This document shows, piece by piece, positions 8,502-32,080 of a stretch of DNA of 63,474 nucleotides. The number at the start of each line of letters is the position of its first letter. The first letter of the stretch is position 1. Made by a program: the position numbers and the translations under genes. The notes beneath the pieces were generated by a model, which saw only the letters and a program-made list of their open reading frames with translations, was not told where the DNA came from and searched no databases. Origin of the DNA: Candidatus Yonathbacteria bacterium RIFCSPLOWO2_01_FULL_47_33b (GTDB lineage: Bacteria > Patescibacteriota > Minisyncoccia > Phycocordibacterales > UBA1550); assembly GCA_001823575.1 (NCBI GenBank), contig MHUW01000017.1, positions 1 to 63,474 on the forward strand, written 5' to 3'.

Positions 8502-8583
8502 GTGCCTGTTCTGTAAGCCAAGGCTATATATACTAGTTTCTGTTTTCTTTAGTAAAGACAACAGAGCATGCTATCATATAGTT

Positions 8584-10745: not shown

Positions 10746-10855
10746 GGATGGGGTATGCCAAAAATGTAGCATGCCCACTGGATTTGTCACGCAGAGCTAA
10801 TTTGCCAGAGCGACATATTCTCAGGTCTCCTCAAGATGATTCCAGCACGTAAGCT

Positions 10856-12151: not shown

Positions 12152-12828
12152 TGAAGCCGACTTCGTTTCCGCGCCACACCGACGAGGCCGAGAAGACCAC
12201 TACCCAAGAGCCAAAAGGCTGGCGGTACGGGAGTGCTCGTCATTGTTGTCTGCGTGGTGCCAACGAGTGTTGTCTGGCTGGTGTTGATAGGGATCAAGTA
12301 CGTATCGACACCTTCGGCGATGAGCATTGACGCTGACCAGATGAAGGTGTTAGCAGTGGAACAATCACCCAAGAAAGCAAGGCATATGTTAGATGACATA
12401 ATATCCCATACTTGGGTGTTCAGTGCTGCAAGGGCGTTGCTGCCGTAAAACGATGCATAGGTTTGTATTGCAGAGTTAGGGAATTGCTCCATTGGGAAAT
12501 ACCCATGTAGCATATACCCCGCCCGTGCATACTGCGCCGGCGTAAATCGTACCGGCGCGCCTGCCATTACATCCGCATACGTGTAGATATGCAACGTTTG
12601 CACGTCGCCGACCGCCACGCGAGCATTGTAGTCAGCAGACATTACCAGGGTAGGCGTACCCAGGTTTGCCTCCAGAAGCCCTGCATATACCTCGGGATTG
12701 GCCGCAGGGTAGGGGGTTGATAAACCACCAGGGCCCGTAGCATATCCGTCATAGACGAGTGCTGCACGAGCAGAGCCAACGGATACCACAGCTACCACTG
12801 AAAGCAGCACTGCAACAAGTCGTTTCAT
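12148..12828 (-). CDS. Secreted protein with VPLPA/PEP-CTERM-type C-terminal sorting signal (paralog A)
   Basis: It has a signal peptide. The C-terminus is VPPAFWLLGSGLLGLVGVARKRSRLH (motif, TM helix, basic tail). The N-terminal half is homologous to 13618..14316. Confidence 0.7.
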   Translation of the reverse strand: MKRLVAVLLSVVAVVSVGSARAALVYDGYATGPGGLSTPYPAANPEVYAGLLEANLGTPTLVMSADYNARVAVGDVQTLHIYTYADVMAGAPVRFTPAQYARAGYMLHGYFPMEQFPNSAIQTYASFYGSNALAALNTQVWDIMSSNICLAFLGDCSTANTFIWSASMLIAEGVDTYLIPINTSQTTLVGTTQTTMTSTPVPPAFWLLGSGLLGLVGVARKRSRLH

Positions 12829-13133
12829 TTCTTTACTCCCCCATCCTTTTCATTATCTGAATTCCCATAGTTGCAACGTACCGAACCCCTGATGCACAGA
12901 ACGGGGGACCAAAAGGGAGCCCCCTTTGGCCAACGGTCACAATCGGAAATTCAAGAGCCCTGAGCGTTTGTTGTTTTTAGTCCAATACGACTAATTTAAA
13001 GCACATTTCATGCCCGAAAAATATATGCCATATTAAACAACAAGATCGAAATTTGTTGTTTAGAGGAATGTAAAATATTCCGACATCTTAAAGCAAGTTA
13101 CGCTCTTGCGCTGTGATGGATATGAACCATGCG

Positions 13134-13520
13134 CTAATAGACCGTCCCGGTTGGCCCCTTCCAACCTTTTTCAGTTTGTTCAAATGTGATGTCACCCTTC
13201 ACGATTTTCTTCTCACCCGCGCGATGTCCACCGCAGTCGCCTTCAATGAACTCAGCACACCCCATCCTTCTCGGGACGTCCTGGGCGTAAACTACTTCTG
13301 CCTCATAATCGATCTTGTACCACTTTACGCCAAATGTTTCGCCGGTCTGCCCATTAACCTTCTTGAAGGACTTGAGTAATGATTTGTTCATTAGGTCAAA
13401 CGGGTCTCTCTGGACGAATTCTCGTTTTGCGTCCCCTTCTGATGGATGGGAAATGGCCCCACACCCAAAGACCAAGACTGCAACTATCAAGTAGATTGAA
13501 TATCGTATCTTCTGCACCAT
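13134..13520 (-). CDS. Putative lipoprotein
   Basis: The signal peptide ends in the lipobox-like LVFGC. Confidence 0.45.
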   Translation of the reverse strand: MVQKIRYSIYLIVAVLVFGCGAISHPSEGDAKREFVQRDPFDLMNKSLLKSFKKVNGQTGETFGVKWYKIDYEAEVVYAQDVPRRMGCAEFIEGDCGGHRAGEKKIVKGDITFEQTEKGWKGPTGTVY

Positions 13521-13617
13521 GAGGCCCCCGTATATTTCCTAAATATGCTGATATTTTCTATCCGCCAGCCACTTTGCGGAAAAGGAAAGATTTTCGTACT
13601 TGACACGCGTTACGGGA

Positions 13618-14316
13618 TCAAGAAAGGGGAGTAACGCTCTTCCTTCTTTTCCGTGCCACACTCACGAGGCCGAGAAGGCCGCTTCCTAAGAGCCATGCGG
13701 CTGCGGGGAGGGGGACTGACGGGGCAATGGTGACGGTGCCGGAGGCGAGGGTGAGACCTTGGCTGGCGAGCGGGATGAGATACTCATCACGACCGGGACC
13801 GCCAGAAGCGACCGTCATCGTTTGGGACCAGTCGAAGAGGTCGAGATCAGAAGCACTCCAGGAAGAAGTTGCGGAGGTTATTTCCCACACGTTCGTATTT
13901 ACGAAAGCAAGTGTATCGCTGCCCTGCATTGTTGCCCATTGCCGTAGAGAGATGGAGACATGCTGCATAACCTGCGTAGGGAAATTAACGTCAAGAAGGT
14001 ATGCCGCCCGTGCATACTGCGCTGGTGTAAACCGTACCGGTGCGCCTGCTTGCACTTCGGCGTAGGTGTAGAGTGTTACCGGCCAGTATTCACCAAGATG
14101 CGAAAGAGTGTTGCGGTCGGCCGACATTACAAGAATCGGTGACCCACCGTAGTTCAGCTCAATCAACCCCGCGTACACTTCGGGATTAACCGTAGGGTAT
14201 GGAGTAGAAAGACCTCCGGGGCCCGTATCCCATCCGTCATAGACGAGTGCGGCACGGGTAGGGGTGGCAAAGACTGTTATAACGGCAAGTCCAAAAGCAG
14301 CGATCAAGTATCTCAT
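13618..14316 (-). CDS. Secreted protein with VPLPA-CTERM sorting signal (paralog B)
   Basis: The C-terminus is VPLPAAAWLLGSGLLGLVSVARKRRK. It shares AALVYDG..TGPGGLSTPYP..NPEVYAGL and GAPVRFTPAQYARA with 12148..12828. Confidence 0.7.
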   Translation of the reverse strand: MRYLIAAFGLAVITVFATPTRAALVYDGWDTGPGGLSTPYPTVNPEVYAGLIELNYGGSPILVMSADRNTLSHLGEYWPVTLYTYAEVQAGAPVRFTPAQYARAAYLLDVNFPTQVMQHVSISLRQWATMQGSDTLAFVNTNVWEITSATSSWSASDLDLFDWSQTMTVASGGPGRDEYLIPLASQGLTLASGTVTIAPSVPLPAAAWLLGSGLLGLVSVARKRRKSVTPLS

Positions 14317-14990
14317 GATGCTTTCCGCCCAGTAACTTCAAGCAACTTGTCCTTGATCGACTTGGCTATGAATTCTTCCATTTCCCGCCGACTTTTTTCC
14401 TGGCTTGCAGGATTACCGGTCACCACTGCCTTCATTTGTTGTTTCCAAATATCGCGCTTGAGGCTCGGGGAATAGATTTCTAGTGTGTAGGTCATGGAGG
14501 ATTCCGGCGCTTTCAGAGAGAAGAGCGCATTGCCTTCAAATCTCGACCCTTCAACTTCCATCACAAAGATCGCTTCTGTTTTTGTTCGCTCAGTAATCTT
14601 GGTATAGAACCTTCTCCGTTCTTCGTCGGTCATGGCCGGTGAAAGCCGCTCGTTCGTCCGAGATAAAACTTGATCGACTTCGTAGGGTGTTACCACCTCG
14701 TACAATCCGGCACTCTTGATCTCTTTGGCGAGGGTGCTCAATGTTTGTCCCTGAACGGGGTTTGCCATGATCGCAAGGCGCCTGAGTTTTGAAAGCGACC
14801 GCTTGTCCTCTTCTGAAAGTGAGGCGTCCAGAAATTCAACCCGCACTTCTCCCCCTGAGGTTGTCTGATGTATTTTGAGGCCCTGGTACGCCATGGCCGC
14901 TATGGGGACGGCGATGCACCCCTGGAGGGTGACGCAAAGCAAAGGAACCCCCAGGAGTGTGGCCAGTTTGGCTATCTCTCTCTTTTTCAT
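14313..14990 (-). CDS. Putative lipoprotein
   Basis: The internal start MKKREIAKLATLLGVPLLCVTLQGC has a lipobox. The upstream part of track ORF 14313..15323 overlaps a better small membrane-protein ORF. Confidence 0.5.
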   Translation of the reverse strand: MKKREIAKLATLLGVPLLCVTLQGCIAVPIAAMAYQGLKIHQTTSGGEVRVEFLDASLSEEDKRSLSKLRRLAIMANPVQGQTLSTLAKEIKSAGLYEVVTPYEVDQVLSRTNERLSPAMTDEERRRFYTKITERTKTEAIFVMEVEGSRFEGNALFSLKAPESSMTYTLEIYSPSLKRDIWKQQMKAVVTGNPASQEKSRREMEEFIAKSIKDKLLEVTGRKAS

Positions 14991-15001
14991 GTTCGCGCCC
15001 C

Positions 15002-15256
15002 TTATATCGCCAACACTTTCTTGTTTTGCCGATCCGCTGCCAGTGCTGCCCAGATGACGCAAACGGGCCACGTGAAGAGGAGTCCGAAGCCTAAGGTGAA
15101 CAGGCCGACGATGAGGGAAATGATGAGCATAATGACGCCGCCCGAGACGGTGGAGTACATCATGCCGAGCGGGCCGAAGAGGAAGGCCAAGATGACCGCC
15201 ACCATCGTGCTTTTCCCCGCACTCTGTACCACCACAATTTTCTGATCTGCTGCCAT
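15002..15256 (-). CDS. Small integral membrane protein (two TM helices)
   Basis: The start MAADQKIVVV is preceded by a GGGAGGGG-type RBS. It has two hydrophobic helices. Confidence 0.5.
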   Translation of the reverse strand: MAADQKIVVVQSAGKSTMVAVILAFLFGPLGMMYSTVSGGVIMLIISLIVGLFTLGFGLLFTWPVCVIWAALAADRQNKKVLAI

Positions 15257-15533
15257 GGTTACCCCTCCCTTTGGATATTGCTCCACACGGCGGATAGCCC
15301 GCCGCCTCTATCTTCGCCCCCACATGACGGTCAATTCTGAGTTCCTGTGCATTTGAGAATGCTTTTGTTAGGAACTAGCTCAACCCCGTAATTTCTAATA
15401 CTGAAATCGTTGCGTAACGGTGGTTCATAGCTCTGGGAATATCCCGTTGGGGTTAAATATACAGAGGTGAAAACAATAACGCAATCAATATTGTTTTCCT
15501 GTTGTTTTCTTTTACCAAGTCTAAACTCGCCGC

Positions 15534-15902
15534 ATGAACCGAAGATCAAAAGTTTCTCAGGCCGCTGTGGTCATTTCGCCGGGAGGTAAAGGCGACAAAG
15601 GGATCAGGATTGGTGAGACCCAAGGGCTTGTTGCCCCCATCCCCAAGAAAACCACAACGGTAACGCTCCGTTTGTCTGGGCCGTGGCATGTCCTCTGGCA
15701 GCGGCTCCGTGCCGCCGTGCCCGGTGTTTCCGATGCTGAACTCTTGCGCCAGGGGGTGGCGCTCCGCATGGCGCTTGCCGCCTTGGACGGCAAAGGCCAA
15801 AAACCCAAAGCCTTTATCCAGTATTACGATCAGGCGGGTAAGCTTCAGACGGTCGATCTTGAAGAGCATGTCGGTATCGAAGTGCCGGAAGAAAAGGGCT
15901 GA
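15534..15902 (+). CDS. Hypothetical protein
   Basis: This is a 122-aa ORF with island-like composition and no recognisable motif. Confidence 0.3.
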   Translation: MNRRSKVSQAAVVISPGGKGDKGIRIGETQGLVAPIPKKTTTVTLRLSGPWHVLWQRLRAAVPGVSDAELLRQGVALRMALAALDGKGQKPKAFIQYYDQAGKLQTVDLEEHVGIEVPEEKG

Positions 15903-16355
15903 AATTGACAGCAGAATATTCTTTGCCCACAATTAAATTGTGGTTAATACCGTGAAAGGAGGTTTGGGGAAGAGCGCTCACGGAGGGTGAGCATACGGGG
16001 CACGCCTCTACCTATGTCAATCGTTCCGCGCGGAACTGGTAATACACGATTGACATGGGAGTACGCATGAAGAAACCCCGATCACAGCTTGTCTTGTTGC
16101 AGTATCAGGTGGAACGGTTGCTTAGTCGTAAGAGTATGAAGTTTGGGTTCACGGCTTCGGTCACCGAAAAGCATGATGAGACCGAGGCCGTAGAGAAACA
16201 GTCGTCGTCCACAGAGTACACAATACCGTCTTTGCAGAAAAAGGATTGAATGAGATTTAAAGCACCCTGAAGTATCACCAGGGCTGGCTGCCAAAGTAAG
16301 AGCACCCAAAGTTGTGGTTCTAGAAGAACATATTCACCGATAGAAGGACATCCCT

Positions 16356-16385
16356 GGGCAGCGTGCGCACGCTGCCCATTTTTTT
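16356..16385 (+). terminator. Rho-independent terminator
   Basis: It has the hairpin gggcagcgtgcgcacgctgccc followed by attttttt. Confidence 0.6.
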
Positions 16386-16487
16386 GCTTGGTTAACAGAA
16401 TGCTCAATCATATTGCATCTCAAATAATTAAGATGGCATTATGGGTGCTTGGTTATTAAGTATGCTTACTAAATGAAGGGGGTGAAT

Positions 16488-16712
16488 ATGGACAATTATC
16501 ACATTACAAAAGATGGAGATAAGTGGAAATTTACAAAAGAGGGGAATGAGCGCCCCTCTAAAGCAGCCGACACAAAGCAAGAAATCGTTGAAAAAATGAA
16601 GGACTTCATGAGCGACAAGACTGGCTCGGTAAAAATTCACAAAGAAGATGGCAAGATTCAAGAAGAGCGTACTTATCAGCGGAAAAATGATCCTCGAAAG
16701 AGCAAGGGATAA
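16488..16712 (+). CDS. DUF2188-like small protein
   Basis: The sequence YHITKDGDKWKFTKEGNERPSKAADTKQEIVEKMKDFM...VKIHKEDGKIQEERTY fits the DUF2188 pattern. An RBS (aaggggg) lies upstream of the ATG at 16488. Confidence 0.55.
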   Translation: MDNYHITKDGDKWKFTKEGNERPSKAADTKQEIVEKMKDFMSDKTGSVKIHKEDGKIQEERTYQRKNDPRKSKG

Positions 16713-16744
16713 AACGGGATCGTCTTTACCAGAATACGTACTTC

Positions 16745-16878
16745 GGGGGACATGGGGACGTGGGGACGTTGAAAAGGGGTATCCACTGAGCAAGAGCCCC
16801 TTCTTTTCTGCCCATATTTCCCTTGGCTCCCGGCCACCTGACACCCTGTAGCGACGTCCCCACGTCCCCACATCCCCC
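16745..16878. repeat. 25-nt inverted repeat with tandem TGGGGACG octamers, arms separated by about 84 nt
   Basis: The left arm is gggggacatggggacgtggggacgt at 16745-16769. The right arm is acgtccccacgtccccacatccccc at 16854-16878. They match at 23/25, with a perfect 17-nt core. Confidence 0.85.
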
Positions 16879-16983
16879 GAATGTGCCCGAGAGGCATATT
16901 TTCACCACTACGAGTTTCGCTGGCTTTAGCTGACAATGGGGAAAGTTCTTGCAGACACTCTAAGCTCTCCGAGAACAATACTC

Positions 16984-17340
16984 ATGTCATCTATTCACTC
17001 ATACATCCGCACTCACCGGCGGAAATGGGCGCTCACCCAGAAGGACCTTGCATTTCTCCTGGGACGAAAAAGCTCTACGCACGTATCCCGTCTCGAACAA
17101 TCCAAGCGCACGCCGCACGTTGAGATCATCCTCGCGTGCGAAATCCTTTTCGGCATATCGTCCGGTCAACTTCTCCCCAAGCTCTATGAAGAAGTCGAGG
17201 AACAGGTTATGGCGCGTGCCAAAGAGCTTTACGAAAAGCTCGAAGGGGAGCGCAGCCACCCTGCTACCAGGAAGAAAGAGTTCCTTTCGACCGTTCTCAA
17301 GCGTGCAGTTACCAGACTTAATCAGACAGAAGGAGTATGA
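16984..17340 (+). CDS. XRE-family HTH transcriptional regulator
   Basis: It contains the classic XRE HTH LTQKDLAFLLGRKSSTHVSRLEQSKRTP. Confidence 0.7.
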   Translation: MSSIHSYIRTHRRKWALTQKDLAFLLGRKSSTHVSRLEQSKRTPHVEIILACEILFGISSGQLLPKLYEEVEEQVMARAKELYEKLEGERSHPATRKKEFLSTVLKRAVTRLNQTEGV

Positions 17341-17858
17341 ATCAGAAAACCAATCACAATCTTGTGCTCTCCGTATATCCTACCAGTCGCGGCTATGCCT
17401 TCGTGCTTTTTGAAGGCCCGCAAAGCCCATATGATTGGGGTGTAAAGGAGATCAGAAAGAAGAACAAGAACGAGCAGACATTGAAAAGCATCCATGCGCT
17501 CATTGAACGCTACCGCCCAGACTACCTCATCATTGAAGACCACACCGAGCACGGCTCGCGCCGGTCGTCACGGATTCGCAGACTTTATCGGATGATTGCC
17601 CACCTTGCTGAAACCGAACAGGTCGAACTGTTCCGCTATTCGCGGCGCACGGTACGGACATGCTTTGAACCTGTCGGCGCGCGCACCAAGTTTGAAATTG
17701 CTCAGGCTATTGCGCTCCAGATTCCAGCCTTTGCGCACCGGTTGCCACAGATGCGCAAAATCTGGATGAGTGAAGACCCGCGTCAGAGTTTATTTGATGC
17801 GGCGGCGTTGGGGGTAGTGTTCTATATACCGGCCCCACGCGGAAACCCTAGTTCATGA
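17337..17858 (+). CDS. RuvC-like/RNase H-fold protein (possibly inactive), overlapping the XRE gene by 4 nt
   Basis: The pattern VLSVYPTSRGYAFVLFEG ... DYLIIED ... LFDAAALGVV resembles the RuvC layout. The first catalytic Asp position is Tyr. Confidence 0.3.
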   Translation: MNQKTNHNLVLSVYPTSRGYAFVLFEGPQSPYDWGVKEIRKKNKNEQTLKSIHALIERYRPDYLIIEDHTEHGSRRSSRIRRLYRMIAHLAETEQVELFRYSRRTVRTCFEPVGARTKFEIAQAIALQIPAFAHRLPQMRKIWMSEDPRQSLFDAAALGVVFYIPAPRGNPSS

Positions 17859-17938
17859 GTGATCCTCCCCCCTATTGCAAAAAATTCAATGTGGTACTAC
17901 AATTGCGATAGACCTGAATACTTGAAAAAGGGGGCAAT

Positions 17939-18262
17939 ATGCAAAAGTTATGTTTTGCCAATGAAGAATTGCGAAATAAATTTTTTGCGCATGTTTCTCC
18001 GTTAGAAGGTCGCTTATTCGTACAAACAATGGCTGGCCTGGAACCAGGGGTTTATAAGGAACGCTATCCAAGGGTTGGTGTCAGTTTACGTGGTGCGTGT
18101 GTTGCCTTGGAATTTCATGTCAACCAGAATCAAGAGCTAGATATTGAGAAAGTTACCGTACTGCATTATGGCGGACTAAAAGGATTGCGTTGGTCTGCTT
18201 GGGGATTAATGGAGCAGTTTTGGTGCAAACTCCTGAGGCTCATAAGAATTAAAGGGGAGTAA
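17939..18262 (+). CDS. Hypothetical protein (low-GC patch)
   Basis: This is a 107-aa ORF followed by the hairpin aaggccc-ttcgt-gggcctt plus a T-run (18361-18388). Confidence 0.3.
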   Translation: MQKLCFANEELRNKFFAHVSPLEGRLFVQTMAGLEPGVYKERYPRVGVSLRGACVALEFHVNQNQELDIEKVTVLHYGGLKGLRWSAWGLMEQFWCKLLRLIRIKGE

Positions 18263-18409
18263 CCGAAGAGAGTGGACTTCTTTTTCAGAAAAAGTAAATT
18301 TAATAGACCGCTGTTCTTATTAGTAAGGCAAGGCGCAAAAGCGTCCGCGATGTAAGGGTGAAGGCCCTTCGTGGGCCTTTTGTTTTTTGTACTTATTAGG
18401 AGTTCTGCG

Positions 18410-18631
18410 ATGAACAAATCCTCAAACACAAAAGAAAGCAAAGTATGTCTTTCACTTCCTGCGCTTACTCCAGATGAGATTAAGAAAGAGCGGGAAAAAA
18501 TGGGATTGAGTCAATTTTCTTTCAGTGTGAAATATGGCATCCCCATCAACACCTTGCGTGCTTGGGAACAGGGAACGCGAATGCCACGCGCTAAGAACAA
18601 GAATCTGTTGCTAAAGTTGTTTACAACGTGA
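18410..18631 (+). CDS. Small XRE/antitoxin-like HTH protein
   Basis: It contains MGLSQFSFSVKYGIPINTLRAWEQGTRMP, an RBS (taggag), and a terminator at 18658-18686 (ccctcca...tggaggg+T7). Confidence 0.55.
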   Translation: MNKSSNTKESKVCLSLPALTPDEIKKEREKMGLSQFSFSVKYGIPINTLRAWEQGTRMPRAKNKNLLLKLFTT

Positions 18632-18710
18632 TTTATTAAAAATCATGAATCCATGAACCCTCCAGTCTATATGGAGGGTTTTTTTATTGTTCAGCCTGTG
18701 TACCCCTCCT

Positions 18711-19910
18711 TTAAGAGGAGAAGCAAGTCTGTACCCACTGTTGTACCGGCGCACTAAGCTTGTAGAAAAAGAACACAGAGAGCAGGAAGCCAATTGCCAC
18801 GATAGCATCAATGACATATAACACCACGCGCTGCGCCTTGTACCGTTTATCAAGTGCCGAGAATGTGTCGGTAAAATTCGGCGCAATAGCAGCATGCTCT
18901 TTTTCAAGTTTCGCTTTTTGGCGATTGATCTCAATACCGATTACATCGAGCGTGTGTCGTTGGTTGCGCAATAGGAAGTGCATGAGCAACATGAAGACAA
19001 AGGAGCCCATAAGGATCGCGGCACTTATCCAGAAATTCCCGTCGATCTTGGTACTTTCTTTCATCTGGGTTGCAACAATGATGGTGGCAACAGGAATCCC
19101 AAGAAGTTGGTTCTGGATATCTGAAAATATCTTGTGAATCTTCCCGAAATATTCGACTCGTGCCGCTTCGATCTCATCTCGAATCTTCTCATATGAGAAG
19201 CCAGCGGCGAACAGCTTGTATCCTTTATCGAATCGTTCTTTTAGTTCTTTAGCATTTTCAAGAAGTGCCGCAAATCGTTTGGATGATGGGAGTTTGGCAG
19301 TGAGTTCATATATCGCCTCCGCCATGATGGAGGCGCACTGTTCCTCATGTACTCCTTGCGGAATCGCATTTGAGAGGTCTGCAAGCGTTGTAAGATTGGT
19401 TGCTCGCAAGTCCTTCTCGGTGAATTTGACAGGTACGTCGAACTTGCCTTCCTTCACAAAGACAAGAAGCTCATCCTGTTCATCAAGGAATGCCGCGCAT
19501 GATTTCAGCATGGCGATAAACGTAAGAATGGCGCGGTACGTAATGATCATATGTTTCGGAGGCACTGCGTCATTCTTGGAAAAATTAGTATCGAGCAGAT
19601 AGAAATTTGTCGGTTCTTTGACGTGCGCGGTCGGATACTGAAGGAGGGCATCAAAGTTTTCCGAAAGTAGGCCGAACCCTGGTCGCGGGGTTCGGATTTC
19701 TACTTGTACTGTAGAACCTATGCCGATAGTGGCAATGGCAGCGGGACTGAGGAGGGTAAGAGCGCTATTGTCAAAATCTGCTTCGCATGCTTGGAGGGCC
19801 GCAAGCTTCTCGGGGGTGTCAACTGATAACGTTCCCGTTACGATGCCTGCCTGATTGGTTCGGCCTGTGAGAGATCGAACTATCGTGACGAGGTCATTGA
19901 ACTGAGCCAT
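18711..19910 (-). CDS. Membrane protein of unknown function (about 290-aa soluble N-terminal region plus 3 C-terminal TM helices)
   Basis: The TM segments are IPVATIIVATQM, FWISAAILMGSFVFMLLMHFLL and VVLYVIDAIVAIGFLLSVFFFY. Its ATG overlaps the upstream gene's stop (TAATG). Confidence 0.5.
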   Translation of the reverse strand: MAQFNDLVTIVRSLTGRTNQAGIVTGTLSVDTPEKLAALQACEADFDNSALTLLSPAAIATIGIGSTVQVEIRTPRPGFGLLSENFDALLQYPTAHVKEPTNFYLLDTNFSKNDAVPPKHMIITYRAILTFIAMLKSCAAFLDEQDELLVFVKEGKFDVPVKFTEKDLRATNLTTLADLSNAIPQGVHEEQCASIMAEAIYELTAKLPSSKRFAALLENAKELKERFDKGYKLFAAGFSYEKIRDEIEAARVEYFGKIHKIFSDIQNQLLGIPVATIIVATQMKESTKIDGNFWISAAILMGSFVFMLLMHFLLRNQRHTLDVIGIEINRQKAKLEKEHAAIAPNFTDTFSALDKRYKAQRVVLYVIDAIVAIGFLLSVFFFYKLSAPVQQWVQTCFSS

Positions 19911-20923
19911 TAACCAAGCTCGCTACGGAGTTCTGCCTCCAAATTCTCTGGGAGGTTAGTGAGGGTCAGCGTATGTTTTTCAGAGTCATATTTTGCTTGC
20001 CCGTTGGTAAGTGCACGGCGATCAATCTCTACCGACCATAACGGCGTCTTTGCCTTGATCTTAACAAGTGTTTTGAGACTGCGACCATCGGGCACGAAGC
20101 CGTCACTTATTTGAACATCTCCAGTCGTGAGCGCTTTCTGAAGCGATTGGGGGTCGTCTGGCCAAATAGCATTCGTAAGGGTTTCGAGAATGAGGGGCTG
20201 ATCATTTCTTTGACGATCAGAGCAGTGGTCATGCGCAGCCTTGAGAAAATCTTCCTGCTGCTCTGGCGTGAGACCGGATTTCTTGGCGAAGTCTTTGAGA
20301 ACAGCGACGAGCTTCTTTGTTTCCTCCGTGGAGGCGATTAGCTCGTCACAGCCAAGAAACAGTTTGAAGTAATCGGAGACTTCGCCTCTCTGCTTGAGGA
20401 AGCCGATATATCGAACATCCTTTTCACCCTTGAGCCAATCGGTAAGGTTTACCCGTCCAGCAACCCGGAGATTCTGGAGATCGACATGTACTGAATCGAC
20501 CACTTCAAGCGAATCATCATTAATGGCACTACCTTTGATGTTGGTGATGATGGCGACAAGGAACCATCTTACCTTTGCGGTATCCGTGATTTGTGCCATG
20601 AGAACATAGCCACCGGTGGCGAGGGGTGCTTGACCCGCTTTCGTGGCGAGTACCTTCATGAGATCTTGAGATGCCTCAAGGAAAGATTTGCTTTTATCCT
20701 TGAACGTTTTTCGAAGGATGCGGGAAGCCGGATAGTTGGTTTCGTCTGCATGGAACCTACCGTATCCTTTCCCTGTACGATCCGCGTATAGCCCATGGAT
20801 ATCATGCACGAGCTTTTGTACAGGTTCGGTTACGTTCAGAGTTGATGACCGGGTAACAACTGTGGCTCTACCATGTCGCTCTTTGACGAGCTTGTGGATG
20901 ACGACCGAATCGATTGTGCTCAA
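19910..20923 (-). CDS. YejK/NdpA-family nucleoid-associated protein homolog
   Basis: By-eye alignment to the E. coli YejK layout finds four blocks: VVIHKLVKE, GGYVLMAQI....WFLVAIITN, RVNLTDWLKGEKDVRYIGFLKQRGEVSDYFKLFLGC, and the C-terminal HTLTLTNLPENLEAEL. Confidence 0.75.
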   Translation of the reverse strand: MSTIDSVVIHKLVKERHGRATVVTRSSTLNVTEPVQKLVHDIHGLYADRTGKGYGRFHADETNYPASRILRKTFKDKSKSFLEASQDLMKVLATKAGQAPLATGGYVLMAQITDTAKVRWFLVAIITNIKGSAINDDSLEVVDSVHVDLQNLRVAGRVNLTDWLKGEKDVRYIGFLKQRGEVSDYFKLFLGCDELIASTEETKKLVAVLKDFAKKSGLTPEQQEDFLKAAHDHCSDRQRNDQPLILETLTNAIWPDDPQSLQKALTTGDVQISDGFVPDGRSLKTLVKIKAKTPLWSVEIDRRALTNGQAKYDSEKHTLTLTNLPENLEAELRSELG

Positions 20924-20952
20924 AGCCTTTCCCCTAAAGAACGTTGACAGTT

Positions 20953-21216
20953 TCAGCGCGGTTTCTTGGCATTGCCGAGTGCTATTCCGCGCGCCGCTTT
21001 TTTCTCTATGGGCACTCTGGCAATGGCAGTTTCGTAATCAAGGCCTGCATCCTTCATGGAACGAATGAGGGACGCAATCACCGCTAAGTGGGAGGGCACT
21101 TCGCCAACCGACTTATAGTTTGTAATTGAGTTGGGGTTGAGCTTCAAGAGCCGCGCGAAGGCGCGGCCGGAGAGCCCAGCCCGTCTTAATTCTTCTTGAA
21201 ATGAATCGTACCTCAT
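20953..21216 (-). CDS. Small HTH protein, paralog of the RM-associated controller-like protein at 26556..26843
   Basis: The shared blocks are AGL...AFA.L.K.N.NSITNYK..GEVP.H.A and the tail IE.KK.RG.A. Confidence 0.6.
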   Translation of the reverse strand: MRYDSFQEELRRAGLSGRAFARLLKLNPNSITNYKSVGEVPSHLAVIASLIRSMKDAGLDYETAIARVPIEKKAARGIALGNAKKPR

Positions 21217-21325
21217 TAAGGCGGGGACGATAGCATAGATTCACACTAATTTGTGTGGTCATCGCTTGAGCGCACATTAGTTAGTGTGTATAGTTTTGCG
21301 TGTTACAGAAAACAAGGGGGTGGTC

Positions 21326-23131
21326 ATGCGTGAAGATACAAACACCAAGCGCGTCGGCATTTGGATTCGTGTTTCTACCGAAGACCAGGTGAAAGGGGAG
21401 AGTCCTGAGCACCACGAGCGCCGTGCCCGCCTCTACGCCGAAGCCAAGGGCTGGAACGTGGTCGAGGTGTACCGCCTGGATGCAATCTCGGGGAAGACCG
21501 TCAAAGACACCCCCGAAGCCAAGCGTATGCTCGTTGATATCAAGAACGGGCACATCACCGGGCTCATCTTCTCCAAACTCGCCCGCCTTGCCCGCAATAC
21601 CAAAGAACTCCTCGAATTCGCTGAAATCTTCCGCGAGTACGACGCCGACCTCATATCCCTTGCCGAATCCATCGACACTTCAACTCCTGCTGGTCGCCTT
21701 TTCTACACCATGATTGCGGCGATGGCCCAATGGGAGCGGGAAGAAATCGCTGCGCGTGTTGCCGCCTCCGTCCCCATCCGTGCCAAGATGGGGAAGCCAT
21801 TGGGCGGCCAGGCCCCCTTTGGCTACCAATGGAACGAACACAAGCTTCTTCCTCATCCAGCCGAAGCACCAGTACGGAAGCTCATGTATGAACTTTTTCG
21901 GGAATATCGACGCAAGAAAACCATTGCGCGGATGCTCAACGAGCGTGGCTATCGTACCCGGAATGGCTCACTGTTCTCTGACACAACGGTAGACCGCCTT
22001 CTCCGTGACCCCACGGCGAAAGGCATCCGTCGTGCAAACTACACCGTCTCCAAGAACAGCAAGAAAGCATGGGAGTTGAAGCCGGAAAGTGAATGGGTGC
22101 TCCATGAGGTAGAAGCCATCGTTACCGAAGACCTCTGGAACGAATGCAATGCCATCCTTGATGAGCAACGGGCGAAGGGGAAACGTCCCACAAGACAGGT
22201 CATCCACCTCTTTGCCGGGCTTACCTACTGCGGCTGCGGGGAGAAGATGTACGTGCCATCAAACACCCCCAAATACGTCTGCCATTCCTGCCGGAACAAG
22301 ATTCCGGTTGTTGACCTAGAGGGGGTATTCCACGAACAGATCAAGAACTTCTTCTTTTCACCAGAGGAGATCGCCGCACACGTGGGCAAAGCTCACGCCG
22401 TCATCAAAGAAAAAGAAGAACTCTTGAGTACACTTTACCGGGAACAGAAGAAGCTCGCGGCTGAGGTTGACCTACTCTATGACCTCTATCAGTCGGGCGC
22501 AATCGACAAGCACGGTTTTGGTGCCAAGTATCACCCTCTGGCAACCAGGCAGCGGCAGCTTGAAGACGAGATTCCCCAAGTCCAGGCAGAACTTGATGTC
22601 CTCAAAATCTCCCACCTCTCTCAAGAAGAGATCGTCACCAGTGCCCGTGACCTGTATTCCCGCTGGCCTGAGCTTCCCCATGAAGAAAAACGCCGGATCG
22701 TGGAAGTCATCACCGACCGGATCATCATCCACGAAGGGGAAGTAGAAATGAACCTCTTCTACGCTCCGCCTGCATCGACACCAGGCATGACGCCTCCCAC
22801 TTCGCAAACACCCCCGACCCCCTCCACCCCTCCTTTAAACGATGGTGGAATGGCAACGAAACTTCATGGCCGCGTTGCCTTCTTGCCATACGTAGCCGTA
22901 ACGCTTAAGGCATTGAGAAGAAAGGAATTTGATTTTGACCCCAAGACGCTAGGCGAGCACATCAAGAAACGCAGGCTGGAACTCAAACTTACCCAGAAGG
23001 AAGTAGCCGCCCGCCTCAAGGTGAACGCCTGGACGGTGCTCAATTGGGAAAAAGGGGAAACGCAGCCGCTTCCGCAGTCAGTACCAAAGATCATCTTGTT
23101 TCTTGGTTACGATCCAATGTGTGAGGCTTAG
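21326..23131 (+). CDS. Large serine recombinase (integrase 2) with Pro-rich linker and C-terminal XRE-type HTH extension
   Basis: It begins VGIWIRVSTEDQ (catalytic Ser) and has a zinc ribbon (CGCGEKMYVPSNTPKYVCHSCRNK) and a coiled coil. A tail from about 22772 follows (PPTSQTPPTPSTPP then LTQKEVAARLKVNAWTVLNWEKGE). Confidence 0.85.
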   Translation: MREDTNTKRVGIWIRVSTEDQVKGESPEHHERRARLYAEAKGWNVVEVYRLDAISGKTVKDTPEAKRMLVDIKNGHITGLIFSKLARLARNTKELLEFAEIFREYDADLISLAESIDTSTPAGRLFYTMIAAMAQWEREEIAARVAASVPIRAKMGKPLGGQAPFGYQWNEHKLLPHPAEAPVRKLMYELFREYRRKKTIARMLNERGYRTRNGSLFSDTTVDRLLRDPTAKGIRRANYTVSKNSKKAWELKPESEWVLHEVEAIVTEDLWNECNAILDEQRAKGKRPTRQVIHLFAGLTYCGCGEKMYVPSNTPKYVCHSCRNKIPVVDLEGVFHEQIKNFFFSPEEIAAHVGKAHAVIKEKEELLSTLYREQKKLAAEVDLLYDLYQSGAIDKHGFGAKYHPLATRQRQLEDEIPQVQAELDVLKISHLSQEEIVTSARDLYSRWPELPHEEKRRIVEVITDRIIIHEGEVEMNLFYAPPASTPGMTPPTSQTPPTPSTPPLNDGGMATKLHGRVAFLPYVAVTLKALRRKEFDFDPKTLGEHIKKRRLELKLTQKEVAARLKVNAWTVLNWEKGETQPLPQSVPKIILFLGYDPMCEA

Positions 23132-24039: not shown

Positions 24040-24468
24040 TCAGTTATGCAATATTTCTTTGTGATCCTCAAGAAATTCGACAATGCGGCGTTTCACGGAC
24101 TCTGGTTCTTTAAGCTCACATTCCCAAATAATAAGAGTTCTCCAACCAAGCTTATTTAGAGCCTCCAGAGTTACCTCATCCCGATCCCGATTGCTGTTGA
24201 TCTTTGCTAACCAGTACGCCGCATTCTGTTTAGGCTTACGCGCACCACGTTGGCAATCGTGTCCGTGCCAGAAACATCCATGAACAAATATGATTTTATG
24301 ACGACCAGCGAATACAAGGTCAGGTTTGCCAGGTAGATCGGCGCAGTGCAGCCGGTAGCGATAACCCATATTAAAAACGAGGCGACGCACCAGCATTTCC
24401 GGGCCAGTATCACGCCCTTTCACTGCACGCATGATGCGGCTGCGAAGCTCGGGCGTGCCTTCCTTCAT
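24040..24468 (-). CDS. vsr: Very short patch repair endonuclease
   Basis: It contains SRIMRAVKGRDTGPEMLVRRLVFNMGYRYRLH...PGKPDLVF...IIFVHGCFWHGH. Confidence 0.85.
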   Translation of the reverse strand: MKEGTPELRSRIMRAVKGRDTGPEMLVRRLVFNMGYRYRLHCADLPGKPDLVFAGRHKIIFVHGCFWHGHDCQRGARKPKQNAAYWLAKINSNRDRDEVTLEALNKLGWRTLIIWECELKEPESVKRRIVEFLEDHKEILHN

Positions 24469-25322
24469 GCGCGGTGAAGGGGTGTATCGTCCGATGCTGC
24501 TATTTCTATCCCATTTCGCACAAGACGGGTGCGCCGGACAGTTTCTGCTCCCTTGTGATTTACCTCAAGATAAACAGATGTTAGTTCGTCATCCTTGCCG
24601 CCAAATACATCAAACAATGCTTGGAGAAAGCCTACATCGTTAAGGCTTTGTGGTGGAGGCGCTGGGTTGTTGCGCACACTCGGCACCGTTGATGGAAAGA
24701 GATAAATACATGGCGGCGCAAGCCTGTAGTCGCCCAATTCCATCGCCTTTACTCTATCAAGCTTAGGGCAGGGCCGCGCCACTGTTCCGCAGAGAATGTC
24801 CCAAATAACCAATCCATCCACCACTTGAGAACGGCCGATGATTTCGGCGCTTAGCCGTGTGTGAATTCCCGACCAGGCACCCTTTCGGGGATCGGAGCCT
24901 TCATTTTGACACATGCTCCAAACGATAAACTCATTTGCATTCGCTGGCCGGTCAAAAATGTTCGTGTTGTTTCCGTCAAGACATCCTTTGAGTTCAATAA
25001 CGGCTGTTCGCCCGTTGGGAAGGCGAACCTGATAATCATGGCGATTATCTTCTCCCGCAGATTTCCAGTCAGCAATCGCGTCTTTTGCTTTCATGTAGTC
25101 CAACACCGTAGCAACGAAGGCACGCTTGTACTTCATCGTCGCGGCTTGTTGACCACGTACACGTTCGATTGCCCCACGAAAGAGGCCGCTTTGATAAAAG
25201 TTTTGTTCGTCTAGGCCATGGTTACCCAACTTGTGCGCTTCATGTTTCAGCGTTTCTGCAAATTCGACAATTAGTTTCCGCAGTGCCGGATTTTTCTCAC
25301 AAGGGGTTATGGGAGAACTCAT
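24465..25322 (-). CDS. Putative type II restriction endonuclease (PD-(D/E)xK)
   Basis: It sits between the C5-methyltransferase and vsr and overlaps vsr by 4 nt. It has the candidate motif HDYQV...GRTAVIELKG. Confidence 0.5.
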   Translation of the reverse strand: MSSPITPCEKNPALRKLIVEFAETLKHEAHKLGNHGLDEQNFYQSGLFRGAIERVRGQQAATMKYKRAFVATVLDYMKAKDAIADWKSAGEDNRHDYQVRLPNGRTAVIELKGCLDGNNTNIFDRPANANEFIVWSMCQNEGSDPRKGAWSGIHTRLSAEIIGRSQVVDGLVIWDILCGTVARPCPKLDRVKAMELGDYRLAPPCIYLFPSTVPSVRNNPAPPPQSLNDVGFLQALFDVFGGKDDELTSVYLEVNHKGAETVRRTRLVRNGIEIAASDDTPLHRA

Positions 25323-25355
25323 ATAAAAACCTCAATCGGGAATGATATCGCGATC

Positions 25356-26522
25356 TTAGCTTAAATTCGGTTGGCCCGCAGTTTGGGCCAAGTGAGACAA
25401 CAGATGCTTGGCAAGGTAACGCGCTACTGGAACAGCAACAGCATCGCCCATGGCGGTATATCCGTCATTGTAGGAACCCGGCAGTTTGTATGATTCCGGT
25501 GCACCCATCAGCCGTGCGGCCTCGCGGACGGTTAAAAGCCGGGTGTCGATACGCTTTCCACGCTTTAGGACAATAACCTGGCGGCTGCTGCCGCCTTGTG
25601 CAGTCCGCAGGCAACCTGCAATATCGTCAAAGCGCAGTTCGAGAACTTGATTGCCTTTACGGGTGCGCTTGTAACCAGGCGCGACCGTAACAGCCTCTTG
25701 GCTCAATCGTTCCCAATGACTGCTTGGGATCATTCCTAATTTTTTAGCCGAAGCCTTTGGTGGATCGCAGGCTGCATCCCATTCAATGACATCCGATAAC
25801 GTGATTTTGCGTTTGCTTGGTTCAGGCATTTTCCACCATACCCAACCTTTCAATCCTTCTGCCGCCTTAACCAAAGTGTCCGAATGAGCCCAATTGGGGC
25901 CAGTATCGATCAGGTTAGCGGGAATCTTTGCCCCTTTCTCGACAGCAATTACAAATACTCGCTGACGGGATTGTGGCACCCAAAGAGACGCATCCAACAT
26001 AACAGCCCCTACGATGTAACCTTTTTTGCGCAAAGCCTCATGCAAAGCGCGGTAATGGATACCGCCATCGGCAGAGATAAGACCCGTCACGTTCTCAGCC
26101 ACCAAGAAAGGCGGACGTTTCGGCATCTCGTCCATAATCCGAAGCCATTGCCATACCAGCCCGCTACGCTCAGCGTGAATGCCAGCCGTTAGTCCGGCAA
26201 GTGACAAATCTTGGCAAGGGAAGCTTGCCCAGGAAAGAACAGCTTGCGGCAGGTCAGCACCATTCACATCGGCAATAGAACCTGAATGGAAATGTTTTTT
26301 CCCGTGGTTGGCAGTGTAAACAGCTGCCTTCTTCTCGCAGATGTCGTTTGCCCATGCAGGCTTGAAAAATTGGCTCAAACCTTGGGCAACAAGGCCGCTA
26401 CCTGCGAAAAATTCCAAGAATGCAGGCTTGGCGCGGCTGGTGCTCTTTTGAGCCGAACGCGGCGCTACTGCACTTGTCCCGGCATCACACTTGAATGAGA
26501 GGGAAACGCCTGAGCTATCCAT
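25356..26522 (-). CDS. dcm: DNA (cytosine-5)-methyltransferase
   Basis: Motif I is FLEFFAGSGL. Motif IV is SFPCQDLSLAG. Motif VI is ENV (LVAENVTGL). A late block, GDAV.VPV, is also present. Confidence 0.9.
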   Translation of the reverse strand: MDSSGVSLSFKCDAGTSAVAPRSAQKSTSRAKPAFLEFFAGSGLVAQGLSQFFKPAWANDICEKKAAVYTANHGKKHFHSGSIADVNGADLPQAVLSWASFPCQDLSLAGLTAGIHAERSGLVWQWLRIMDEMPKRPPFLVAENVTGLISADGGIHYRALHEALRKKGYIVGAVMLDASLWVPQSRQRVFVIAVEKGAKIPANLIDTGPNWAHSDTLVKAAEGLKGWVWWKMPEPSKRKITLSDVIEWDAACDPPKASAKKLGMIPSSHWERLSQEAVTVAPGYKRTRKGNQVLELRFDDIAGCLRTAQGGSSRQVIVLKRGKRIDTRLLTVREAARLMGAPESYKLPGSYNDGYTAMGDAVAVPVARYLAKHLLSHLAQTAGQPNLS

Positions 26523-26555
26523 TGCTATTCCCTCGAAAAAATAAATTCAGTTCCA

Positions 26556-26843
26556 TTACAGTGGAAAATCAGTTTGTTTGCTCCCGCCGAATCGGCCCTT
26601 GATAGCCGTACCCCTGGTTTTCTTTTGCTCAATCTCAATCCCGCCCAAAGCTTCCTTGAAGTCCAGCTTGTGATCGGCCATAACACCCATTAGCACAGAC
26701 ACAATCGCCCAATGAGCAGGGACTTCTCCATCCTTTTTGTAGTTGGTAATGGAGTTGCAGTTGATTTTTACCAACTCGGCAAACGCCTTGTTTGTCAGCC
26801 CAGCTTTGCCGAGTTGGCGGCGGAATTCTTTATAAGTCATCAC
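26556..26843 (-). CDS. Controller-like small HTH protein heading the RM operon
   Basis: It is the first gene of the C-M-R-Vsr operon and has the HTH block AGLTNKAFAELVKINCNSITNYKKDGEVP. Confidence 0.55.
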   Translation of the reverse strand: MMTYKEFRRQLGKAGLTNKAFAELVKINCNSITNYKKDGEVPAHWAIVSVLMGVMADHKLDFKEALGGIEIEQKKTRGTAIKGRFGGSKQTDFPL

Positions 26844-26947
26844 GGCTTATAGCATTGTTTTTTAACGCCGTCAATACATCTATTAATTCAAATGTAGAAC
26901 TAATTAATTTATAAATTAAACTAAATAATGTACTAAAACCCTTGATA

Positions 26948-26985
26948 ATACATTAAGATATGTATGAGTGCATGTCTTAATGTAT
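26948..26985. promoter_or_regulatory. Candidate operator (11-nt inverted repeat) in the AT-rich region upstream of the RM operon
   Basis: The arms are atacattaaga (26948-26958) and tcttaatgtat (26975-26985), separated by 16 nt. The element lies about 100 nt upstream of the controller gene on the minus strand. Confidence 0.3.
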
Positions 26986-26999
26986 TTACGAGATTCGCC

Positions 27000-27199: not shown

Positions 27200-27703
27200 T
27201 TACTGCTCACTTTCAAGCGCAGGACACCCCTCGCCATTAACGTAGGTCTTGTAGGCTGCGATCCAGTTGGTGGCAATGGCCTTCTGCGCATCCGCCAGAG
27301 AGATTTTTTCAGCACACACCATCCGCTTGAGGCGAGTTTCAACCACATCCTTGATTCGTGCCCCACAGCGCGTGTTGTACGGCTCCGGCCATAAGTTTTG
27401 CGGGTCGGTTGGATGGCCGCCTAGCTGGAGGCTAATGAGGTGGTCTTCCTCATATGAAGCCAAACTCTTGTCCCTGTACCGATACTCCTTAATTTGTTTT
27501 TTCTTGAGATCAGTCGTGTAGCTCGACGGTGGCCGTATGGTTTTCGTCCACCCGGATACGCAGATCGTTTGCTTGATGTTTTCTTGAGTTACGTCGGGGT
27601 TCGTAACGCCTGGTGTTCGGACAGGGTCGGGAAGATTGCGTGCAAACGATACGGTCGTTACAAAGCACATCCACAGCACAAAGAACCAGCGGCTTGTTTT
27701 CAT
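27200..27703 (-). CDS. Secreted HNH/His-Me-finger-like protein
   Basis: It has a signal peptide and the block TICVSGWTKTIRPPSSYT...YEEDHLISLQLGGHPTDPQNLWPEP. Confidence 0.5.
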   Translation of the reverse strand: MKTSRWFFVLWMCFVTTVSFARNLPDPVRTPGVTNPDVTQENIKQTICVSGWTKTIRPPSSYTTDLKKKQIKEYRYRDKSLASYEEDHLISLQLGGHPTDPQNLWPEPYNTRCGARIKDVVETRLKRMVCAEKISLADAQKAIATNWIAAYKTYVNGEGCPALESEQ

Positions 27704-27737
27704 AGAGTCCTCCTTGGTGAATTTACCATGTCATTTA

Positions 27738-28037
27738 CTACAACCACTGGCCTACCCCGCCATGGCGAGAGCAGGTGCCGGAACGATGACGGCTGAAGCT
27801 GTAGGTGCCATCGCGGCATTGCGCAGAAGCACCGGCAGGAATCGCCCCTGACGTACTTTTTGCAGGGGAATGGACGCTCTGGCCATCTTTGTTGATGTAG
27901 TGTCGGTGAGAATCTAGATCGCTCTCATTGGGAGAGGCTTCTTGGGTGTACGCCTGGCCAGGGGATTGTCGAGCTTCGGCAATATGCGGAACAACCAACA
28001 CCAACGCGGTTAACAGCGTGACCAATATTCTGTTCAT
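27738..28037 (-). CDS. DUF3761-like secreted protein
   Basis: It has a signal peptide and the C-terminal block CRDGTYSFSRHRSGTCSRHGGVGQWL. Confidence 0.6.
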   Translation of the reverse strand: MNRILVTLLTALVLVVPHIAEARQSPGQAYTQEASPNESDLDSHRHYINKDGQSVHSPAKSTSGAIPAGASAQCRDGTYSFSRHRSGTCSRHGGVGQWL

Positions 28038-28089
28038 ATATCCTCCCTTTCGTGATTAACGTTGTTACCTTACTTACTGACCTGCATCT

Positions 28090-31143: not shown

Positions 31144-31157
31144 GGTGCACTCGGAGG

Positions 31158-31664: not shown

Positions 31665-31812
31665 GATGCTCCCCCTTGGCCGTCCACTTTCGTTATGTGG
31701 TCATTATGCTCCCCAAATATCTTTTTGTTCAAGCACTTCGGAGAATGGCGTCCCGGCTCGTCGGGCTTGGTCTACAATTACTTTCTCCACAACCTCCTAT
31801 CTGCTTTTCATC

Positions 31813-32079
31813 ATGAGCATATATACCGACAGTGAATTCCAGTTGAAACCGGTCAAGTTCCGCACGGATTTTGATGAGGTTGATGAAAGGTGGGGCGTGG
31901 AACCGGCAGACCCGCGCACGGTTGAGTATGTCATTGCGCTCCCGGAGGTGCAGTTTTCTTCCGAGGAGGCTGCTCGGGCATTCTGTGCGTGGCTCAACGA
32001 GACTGGCCAAGCCGGGGATTTCTTTGACTTGATGTGGGATACGGTGAGAAAACCTAGTCCTCTGCATCAGCCGCATTAA
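31813..32079 (+). CDS. Small acidic hypothetical protein (convergent with the 418-aa ATPase gene)
   Basis: It is an 88-aa ORF from the ATG at 31813 inside track ORF 31618..32079. Confidence 0.2.
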   Translation: MSIYTDSEFQLKPVKFRTDFDEVDERWGVEPADPRTVEYVIALPEVQFSSEEAARAFCAWLNETGQAGDFFDLMWDTVRKPSPLHQPH

Positions 32080-32080
32080 T

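Follow-up and report, generated by a model that had tools for sequence, protein, structure and literature searches.

The 63,474-nucleotide contig MHUW01000017.1 of Candidatus Yonathbacteria bacterium RIFCSPLOWO2_01_FULL_47_33b (assembly GCA_001823575.1), a bacterium of the candidate phyla radiation (CPR), contains a pair of adjacent genes, here called A and B, that probably constitutes a two-gene abortive-infection anti-phage system of the kind represented by DS-1 and PANGU type II; we refer to the whole contig as the window. Gene A codes for a DNA-clamp protein of the YejK/NdpA family, and gene B for a protein combining a soluble N-terminal region with a hydrophobic C-terminus. A first-pass annotation of this DNA had suggested that the two act as a DNA sensor and a membrane effector in an abortive-infection-like mechanism, a suggestion supported by its match to the published DS-1 and PANGU type II systems; the alternative offered with it, an element-specific tether between nucleoid and membrane, found no specific support. 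The idea of a sensor coupled to a membrane effector has itself been in print since 2026, and the window holds a divergent member of a kind already described. The locus comprises three co-oriented open reading frames (ORFs) on the minus strand, with the following features:

20953 to 21216, minus strand: gene for an 87-residue protein with a helix-turn-helix (HTH) of the XRE fold (from AlphaFold2 and Foldseek), 29 nt upstream of A
19910 to 20923, minus strand: gene A, YejK/NdpA-family (NA37) DNA-clamp protein of 337 residues (Pfam PF04245), the proposed sensor
18711 to 19910, minus strand: gene B, 399 residues, the proposed effector, with an acidic soluble N-region and two to three C-terminal transmembrane (TM) helices (about 265-283, weak; 295-313; 362-380)
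19908 to 19912, minus strand: stop/start overlap TAATG of A and B, read directly in the sequence and expected to couple their translation
18655 to 18681, strand not assigned: G+C-rich hairpin 30 nt past the stop of B, from a terminator scan and the sequence

Gene A begins with a TTG codon five bases after GGGGAAAGG, and its stop shares one base with the ATG of B (ggTTAATGgct; TAATG, 19912-19908), so that the overlap reported in the first pass stands. The hairpin separates B from a convergent HTH gene (18371-18631) and is probably the end of the operon; its T-run is good on the plus strand only, and the minus-strand operon would be expected to terminate there. A promoter scan of the operon region gave no more hits than shuffled sequence, and we claim no promoter. 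In comparison with a sister element from another genome (locus L027, 84% identical), A, B and the HTH gene have ratios of non-synonymous to synonymous substitution rates (dN/dS) of 0.12, 0.10 and 0.055, respectively; hence, all three genes are under purifying selection.

Gene A encodes a full-length member of the PF04245 (NA37) family, with residues 8-328 occupying positions 1-324 of the 325-position model (E 1.1e-72; 245.6 bits against a cut-off of 24.6). The YejK/NdpA homology proposed earlier for the 337-residue product was also strong in other searches, which recovered E. coli YejK (PDB 9BE2; E 2.4e-29, residues 4-333, 25% identity) and PHROG 3767, "nucleoid associated protein" (8.6e-87). 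Among the NCBIfam models the protein scores 192.4 bits on the YejK equivalog NF001557, below the cut-off of 341, and 57.5 bits (E 1.1e-15) on DS1_1_antiphage, "nucleoid-associated anti-phage protein", for which the equivalog cut-off is 330. The better score on the YejK than on the DS1_1 model implies that the A-B partnership could have arisen apart from that of DS-1A. A housekeeping YejK was considered and ruled out, as the score falls under the equivalog cut-off and the gene is always found on mobile DNA; by these comparisons A is a paralogous, element-borne member of NA37 and not the chromosomal YejK orthologue. The accompanying statement that YejK-like genes normally stand alone needs to be amended, since a recent preprint places 47% of them in operons (bioRxiv 10.64898/2026.04.06.716658).

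In E. coli YejK the basic residues lining the pore of the clamp are R173, R176, K177, R276, R280 and K284, with R176 and K177 belonging to a triple mutant that abolished DNA binding (PMC11229321). Of 21 A proteins that are associated with a B partner, 19-20, the A of the window included, have a basic residue at the positions of R173, R280 and K284, and the equivalent of R276 is shifted by one residue. In every one of the 21, R176/K177 are replaced by Gly/Glu or Asp and accompanied by a two-residue deletion, a combination that could lower the affinity for DNA or alter the target that is sensed.

Gene B is without a Pfam domain in our Pfam scan, and its one match among PDB sequences (E 0.07) was judged to be noise. 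It matches the NCBIfam model DS1_2_antiphage with E 4.1e-27 (95.3 bits; equivalog cut-off 315) and PHROG 5023, to which no function is assigned there, with 1.1e-78; the 399-residue protein thus does lie outside the known housekeeping families in the Pfam and NCBIfam scans. A search with B recovered 308 homologues, none of them with a Pfam domain, and an exhaustive profile search 1127 representatives at 50% identity (309 with E < 1e-30), nearly all of 380-420 residues. Kyte-Doolittle hydropathy delineates two strongly hydrophobic 19-mers, 295-313 and 362-380, and a third segment at about 261-279 that is weaker, yet forms the most conserved stretch of the B family. Of the three TM helices attributed to B in the first pass, then, the C-terminal hydrophobic region is borne out with two helices unambiguous and the third plausible. 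The intervening loop 314-361 has a net positive charge, so that the positive-inside rule favours a topology of three membrane passes with the N-terminus inside and the C-terminus outside. At the point of membrane entry the family displays a near-invariant segment of the form GFSYEK.RD..EAAR.E..GK.HK.F.DIQNQLL..P. The preceding N-region (about residues 1-264) has a net charge of -7 and a pI of 5.3, the charge ranging from -5 to -16 across the B family and being -9 in DS-1B. An AlphaFold2 model built with 25 homologues (predicted local distance difference test, pLDDT, 83.7) has a confidently folded N-region; residues 1-160 make up an alpha/beta domain and 165-285 a helical region, after which come a pair of long helices (291-338 and 343-385), each of some 45 residues. 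Foldseek searches of PDB and BFVD with this model returned no match with E < 0.2, and no function can be assigned to B from its fold.

The association of the two genes is highly conserved. A scan with one genome per species yielded 22 loci, and in all 21 that had sufficient upstream sequence B is immediately preceded on the same strand by an A homologue; with each ORF simply taken from the first start codon that follows a stop, the two genes overlap or abut in every case. The obligate pairing of the YejK-like gene with a membrane protein gene, as the first pass had put it, is therefore conserved in 21/21 genomes as well as in a phage and a plasmid. The hosts include Burkholderiales, Thiobacillus, Dechloromonas/Accumulibacter and Moraxellaceae/Acinetobacter among the Beta- and Gammaproteobacteria, along with "delta proteobacterium" metagenome-assembled genomes (MAGs) and a Thermoanaerobaculia (Acidobacteriota) MAG. 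In the temperate Sinorhizobium phage phi2LM21 the pair corresponds to p68/p67, which lie beside a methyltransferase at the end of the genome and have an annotated overlap of 8 nt; an annotated pair with an 8-nt overlap is likewise found on a Sphingomonas plasmid. An identical B protein has an IS21-type transposon as its neighbour on one contig and lies in a prophage-like region, at the end with the integrase, on others, and an integrative and conjugative element (ICE) is also among the contexts of the pair.

Proximity to defence genes, which the first pass had singled out as a check, was found both in the window, where a type II restriction-modification (RM) system lies 2.8 kb from A-B, and among the relatives. 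For the relatives, the scan took in 144 ORFs located no farther than 4.5 kb from the pair in 19 non-redundant genomes. The PADLOC matches included MADS (mad1-3), type I methyltransferase and specificity subunits, a type III restriction endonuclease, DpdJ/DpdF, Shedu SduA, NsnB and PDC-M30/M41, and the Pfam matches included integrases, transposases and ICE genes. In a Hydrogenophaga MAG an AbiEii gene directly adjoins the pair, with a RES-domain gene and TniQ nearby.

The closest described systems come from E. coli. DS-1, system 1 of DefensePredictor (Science 2026, PMC13092281), consists of WP_000355468.1 (391 residues, a YejK domain with an N-terminal zinc ribbon) followed after a 2-nt gap by WP_000150292.1 (404 residues, TM region 269-404); cloned with its native promoter in MG1655 it scored as defensive, and the result was replicated (PMC13092281). 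Its two proteins correspond to the NCBIfam (June 2026) models NF053868/NF053869. In pairwise comparison A and B are 24% and 21% identical to their E. coli counterparts, and an hhalign comparison of the B-family profile with DS-1B gave a probability of 91.6% (E 8e-7) for an alignment collinear over 260 columns, spanning the N-terminus to the first hydrophobic helix. The window shares with DS-1 a YejK-domain gene in first position, a partner of about 400 residues immediately after it, and in that partner an acidic soluble N-region followed by a membrane region (TM 269-404 in DS-1B, hydrophobic from about 265 to 399 in B). It differs in having a 1-nt overlap in place of the 2-nt gap, in the absence from A of the zinc-ribbon extension of DS-1A, in hydrophobic helices that are much stronger in B than in DS-1B, and in hosts, element and upstream HTH. 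The homology to DS-1 is significant by these searches, and the window pair is outside the DS-1 equivalog group.

PANGU type II comprises a YejK-like nucleoid-associated protein (NAP), Pag2A, and Pag2B, a protein with an N-terminal acidic DNA-mimic (DMK) domain and a C-terminal TM domain; protection from T4 requires the two genes together and takes the form of abortive infection (bioRxiv 10.64898/2026.04.06.716658). Upon T4 infection Pag2A-GFP leaves the nucleoid, and Pag2A binds the acidic domain of Pag2B with a dissociation constant of 19 nM (bioRxiv 10.64898/2026.04.06.716658). In types I and II neither single genes nor the pair are toxic, and the NAP is an activator rather than an antitoxin (bioRxiv 10.64898/2026.04.06.716658). 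The window resembles this system in its bicistronic arrangement of a YejK-like NAP and a TM effector, here with a moderately acidic N-region, in its linkage to defence genes including RM, and in its spread across phyla; its 1-nt overlap falls within the bicistronic definition used for type II (gap < 40 bp, TM effector), as does its 2.8-kb distance from the RM system within the context definition (<=10 kb of defence genes). An HTH leader and a CPR host are not part of PANGU type II as described, and the likeness to it is drawn from architecture. A more distant parallel is RexA/RexB of phage lambda, in which a cytoplasmic sensor activates a membrane ion-channel effector and thereby causes abortive infection. 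The resemblance to this two-gene, prophage-borne logic of a soluble nucleic-acid-related sensor and a polytopic membrane effector is an analogy only, as no relationship to A-B was detected by sequence (Pfam) or fold (Foldseek).

Several points weigh against assigning A-B to this kind of system. The anti-phage experiments are confined to the E. coli systems, and the host here is a CPR bacterium. Identity to DS-1 is only 21-24%, both NCBIfam scores lie far under the equivalog cut-offs, and A scores higher on the housekeeping YejK model (192 bits) than on DS1_1. DNA binding by the A family may differ from that of YejK in view of the acidic change at R176/K177, and the N-region of B is only moderately acidic (pI 5.3). 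That PANGU type II is the same as DS-1, and that the A-B family falls within PANGU "Cluster 2", we infer from architecture, the former from identical architecture together with the species. Lastly, PADLOC-DB 2023 gave no match for HTH, A or B and has no model for A or B; this blank is expected because the family was described later, and we do not count it against a role in defence.

On this basis we envisage the following course of events. A would be a dimeric clamp of the YejK fold residing on chromosomal DNA, as suggested by its fold and by the part of the basic pore that is retained in sequence comparisons, and B would be anchored by its C-terminal helices with a moderately acidic N-region of about 260 residues facing the cytoplasm. 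When a phage degrades the host DNA, A would lose its substrate, leave the nucleoid and bind the acidic region of B in place of DNA; this step has been seen for Pag2A/Pag2B of E. coli (in a preprint) and is extended here to A-B. Binding of A would then turn the TM part of B membrane-damaging, so that the infected cell stops growing before the phage cycle is completed.

A defensive function with a different trigger or output is unlikely, though the pair has features that would suit it. A might instead sense incoming DNA (ends, modified or AT-rich DNA), and the family-specific change of R176/K177 to acidic residues with the deletion in the clamp pore does suggest that DNA binding may be altered; alternatively, B might block injection, and the pair does occupy moron positions of temperate phages, which are typical of superinfection-exclusion genes. 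The preprint on PANGU leaves the activation step of Pag2B open (bioRxiv 10.64898/2026.04.06.716658). Neither version has direct evidence in its favour, whereas the published relative shows abortive infection and relocalisation of the NAP after T4 infection.

The small gene upstream of A proved to belong to the element rather than to the pair. It is present at 20953-21216 as first reported, with a marginal assignment by Pfam (HTH_31, E 0.045). Its AlphaFold2 model (pLDDT 84) has five helices, and nearly all of the best Foldseek matches listed have the XRE fold (HigA2, C.EcoT38IS, C.BclI, Aca1, Cro), with probabilities of up to 0.98 but E-values of 0.15-1. The first-pass observation that the cassette is built like the neighbouring RM cassette is borne out by the 95-residue leader of the latter, which is 48% identical to the HTH protein (E 1e-28). 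Its inclusion in an A-B cassette does not hold: a phmmer search found it in 0/21 distant A-B loci, and its own family of 21 proteins follows the recombinase, so that we rejected it as a third conserved component and regard it as a backbone gene of the serine-recombinase element. In 6 of 7 loci that were looked up it adjoins, in divergent orientation, a large serine recombinase, L040 showing none there. The cargo in the slot behind it varies: the window and L027/L028 have NA37 and B there; L037-L039 have a small ORF and, beyond it, a Vsr/Dcm RM system in convergent orientation; L040/L041 have unassigned genes of 389, 127 and 219 residues; and L042 has a 547-residue RelA/SpoT-domain protein with a TIR protein nearby. 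The HTH protein is best read as a backbone regulator of the element that leads a variable, largely defensive cargo slot. Across the sister elements L037-L042 this HTH-led slot has the appearance of a defence hotspot. Two inverted repeats lie in the intergenic region between recombinase and HTH gene:

21273 to 21289, strand not assigned: palindromic box 1, ACACACTAACTAATGTG as read on the minus strand
21242 to 21257, strand not assigned: palindromic box 2, CACACAAATTAGTGTG as read on the minus strand

Box 1 is conserved in 4/4 other loci covering it (L027, L037, L041, L042), whatever their cargo, while the flanks diverge; box 2 is conserved in three of these, the L042 stretch ending inside it. 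The HTH paralog of the RM cassette likewise has an inverted repeat resembling these on its upstream side (26947-26986, core ACATTAA). The boxes are candidate operators, through which the 87-residue protein would control transcription into the cargo slot in the manner of an RM controller (C) protein, although they could serve the recombinase instead. With C proteins and Aca-type regulators it shares a small five-helix XRE fold, its position as the first gene of a cassette and palindromic boxes just upstream; no significant sequence match to C-protein families was found with Pfam, and unlike C proteins it stays with the recombinase end in the sister elements and not with one cargo.

The variability of this slot also bears on whether A and B might serve the upkeep of the element itself. 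A would then be a "stealth" NAP tuning transcription or topology, as is the NdpA-like Pnd of plasmid pCAR1, a "stealth" nucleoid-associated protein of a mobile element, and B would tether the DNA to the membrane for segregation, transfer or excision. We consider this quite improbable. The pair is indeed always on mobile DNA (serine-recombinase element, prophage, plasmid, ICE), but it moves among unrelated element types with different replication and transfer machinery, where a backbone function should stay put, and it takes accessory or moron positions beside defence genes. In the sister elements the slot contains RM, a RelA/SpoT-domain protein or unassigned genes, showing that the element does without A-B. 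A does score better on the housekeeping YejK model than on DS1_1, and genes resembling type IV secretion system coupling proteins lie near in the window; against this, the homologous DS-1 carried on a plasmid protects E. coli from phage without the element. Addiction, with B as a membrane toxin restrained by A so that loss of the element kills the cell, is very unlikely: the overlapping two-gene operon with a membrane protein on mobile elements and the XRE-type HTH upstream do recall many toxin-antitoxin loci, but the HTH is not conserved with the pair, A is a full-size 337-residue DNA clamp under purifying selection rather than a small labile antitoxin, and the PANGU I/II genes are non-toxic singly or paired, with the NAP as activator (bioRxiv 10.64898/2026.04.06.716658).

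The HTH-A-B genes lie in an element of roughly 14 kb, with a large serine recombinase facing outward at each end:

21284 to 23131, plus strand: right-end large serine recombinase (Pfam Resolvase, Recombinase and a C-terminal HTH_3)
9111 to 10790, minus strand: left-end large serine recombinase (Pfam Resolvase, Recombinase and Zn_ribbon_recom)

The arrangement at the right end is the same in L027/L028, and the left recombinase has counterparts in L027 and in L023-L025. By blastn, window positions 10814-22869 match L027 positions 7039-16253 in four blocks of 77-84% nucleotide identity, which suggests a recent transfer of the element between phyla. The L027 element abuts a truncated comM-like gene, and the L027 genome encodes LptFG, BamE, Gcw_chp and amt/P-II genes, the presence of the first three indicating that it is probably Gram-negative. 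The blastn identity with L027 ends at 22869, and the HTH_3 domain of the right-end recombinase (residues 556-611) lies beyond this point. No HTH_3 domain is on record for the L027 recombinase, and L023 has only a 292-residue HTH_3 protein called there. The frame of the right recombinase may therefore run across the element junction into the target gene. Population variants from other samples include L024, in which A (9102-10001) was called as 299 residues with a shorter N-terminus, and L023, in which the right-hand recombinase is reduced to the 292-residue HTH_3 protein (6726-7604). At the opposite end a tRNA-Tyr gene (9196-9279, plus strand) lies inside the 3' end of the left recombinase ORF (9111-10790, minus strand); possible explanations are that the tRNA gene serves as the attachment site or that the ORF is over-extended.

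Within the element, the minus-strand ORFs 12148-12828 and 13618-14316 are paralogous and lie in direct repeats (D2-D4) that are 74-79% identical. Both end in a VPLPA-CTERM/PEP-CTERM signal (TIGR03370, 30.8 bits against a cut-off of 25.35), and the VPLPA-CTERM block is absent from L027. VPLPA-CTERM proteins depend on exosortase-type sorting, described in Gram-negative bacteria, and such a signal is hence odd in a CPR genome. Between small ORFs of the element, positions 16742-16881 contain a GGGGAC-rich, imperfect inverted repeat of 57 nt (74% complementary, arms 26 nt apart).

Cargo of proteobacterial type in a CPR genome raises the question of a chimeric contig, which we judged unlikely, as CPR-type genes flank the island on both sides. 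The flanks (1-9000 and 42000-63474) encode among others ClpB (5814-8501), AtpA (54969-56531) and AtpD (59783-61180). The AtpD is 92% identical to a Candidatus Yonathbacteria protein, its other named matches all being from Patescibacteria, and both ClpB and AtpD group with those of a "Minisyncoccota bacterium" MAG. AtpD and a variant of A are, moreover, each on record for a contig of 96,692 bases, which is also the length of an ENA scaffold bearing the locus, and independent assemblies of at least three further samples contain the island core, which argues against a chimera. In the ATP synthase operon of the right flank about 2.3 kb of low-G+C sequence (0.39-0.44; 57512-59783), containing ORFs 57967-58506 and 59062-59535, separates atpD from a putative atpG (56535-57512) that was assigned by position alone.

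To the right of the element lies the RM system already mentioned:

24040 to 26843, minus strand: type II RM cassette, with HTH (26556-26843), C5-methyltransferase (25356-26522), restriction endonuclease (24465-25322) and Vsr (24040-24468)

PADLOC identifies its components as MTase_II/DruM (3.9e-106), REase_II (1.3e-115) and Vsr (1.1e-28), and the NCBIfam dcm and vsr models score above their cut-offs. Beyond it, 27200-39054 (minus strand) is occupied by a block of large genes, two of which, coding for 1017 (28090-31143) and 418 residues (32081-33337), contain TrwB/TraG-type coupling-protein or HerA-like ATPase domains; the 731-, 292- and 358-residue proteins of the block gave no family match, and the block could represent another mobile element or a module resembling conjugation genes in this CPR genome. 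The ORF for the 731-residue protein (34527-36722) contains a tandem duplication of a 120-nt unit (35628-35867, copies 76% identical), and the 35-36 kb region has a strongly negative AT skew (-0.44). Four perfect hairpins with arms of 21-25 nt and 100% complementarity (39471-39524, 40333-40379, 40401-40442 and 41025-41068) cluster in the 2 kb before a tRNA-Trp gene (41312-41383), near the right end of the island, and may be terminators or recombination sites.

It is possible, though we put it forward only tentatively, that the locus is more than another copy of DS-1/PANGU in two respects: a recent crossing of the element between Gram-negative and CPR bacteria, and a separate B clade with a different mode of sensing. 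In the first, the nucleotide identity of 77-84% would reflect the passage of a defence-carrying serine-recombinase element with an HTH-led variable slot. In the second, the B family, with its 1127 representatives and no known fold, would form a separate effector clade, the partner clamps of which may sense something other than the bulk loss of host DNA. If true, the crossing of an element bearing VPLPA-CTERM genes would suggest that genes pass between an episymbiont and the bacterium that is probably its host, and a nucleoid-guarding abortive-infection system would operate in an ultra-small cell.

Experimental validation of this kind of system, in which a nucleoid-associated clamp watches over genome integrity and is coupled to a membrane effector, dates from 2026 and is limited to E. 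coli. The window adds to this a large divergent branch in which both partners are well conserved, and the significance of the locus rests mainly on the size and divergence of this branch, the mechanism of the effector and the CPR and inter-phylum context. The features that remain constant with respect to DS-1B, namely gene order, overlapping frames, an acidic N-region and the near-invariant membrane-entry segment, are concrete targets for mutagenesis. CPR genomes are generally regarded as poor in defences other than RM; here such a system occupies, as interchangeable cargo, a particular slot of a serine-recombinase element within a CPR genome. Proteins of the B family, now recorded as "hypothetical protein", could be named as probable effectors of the DS-1/PANGU type.

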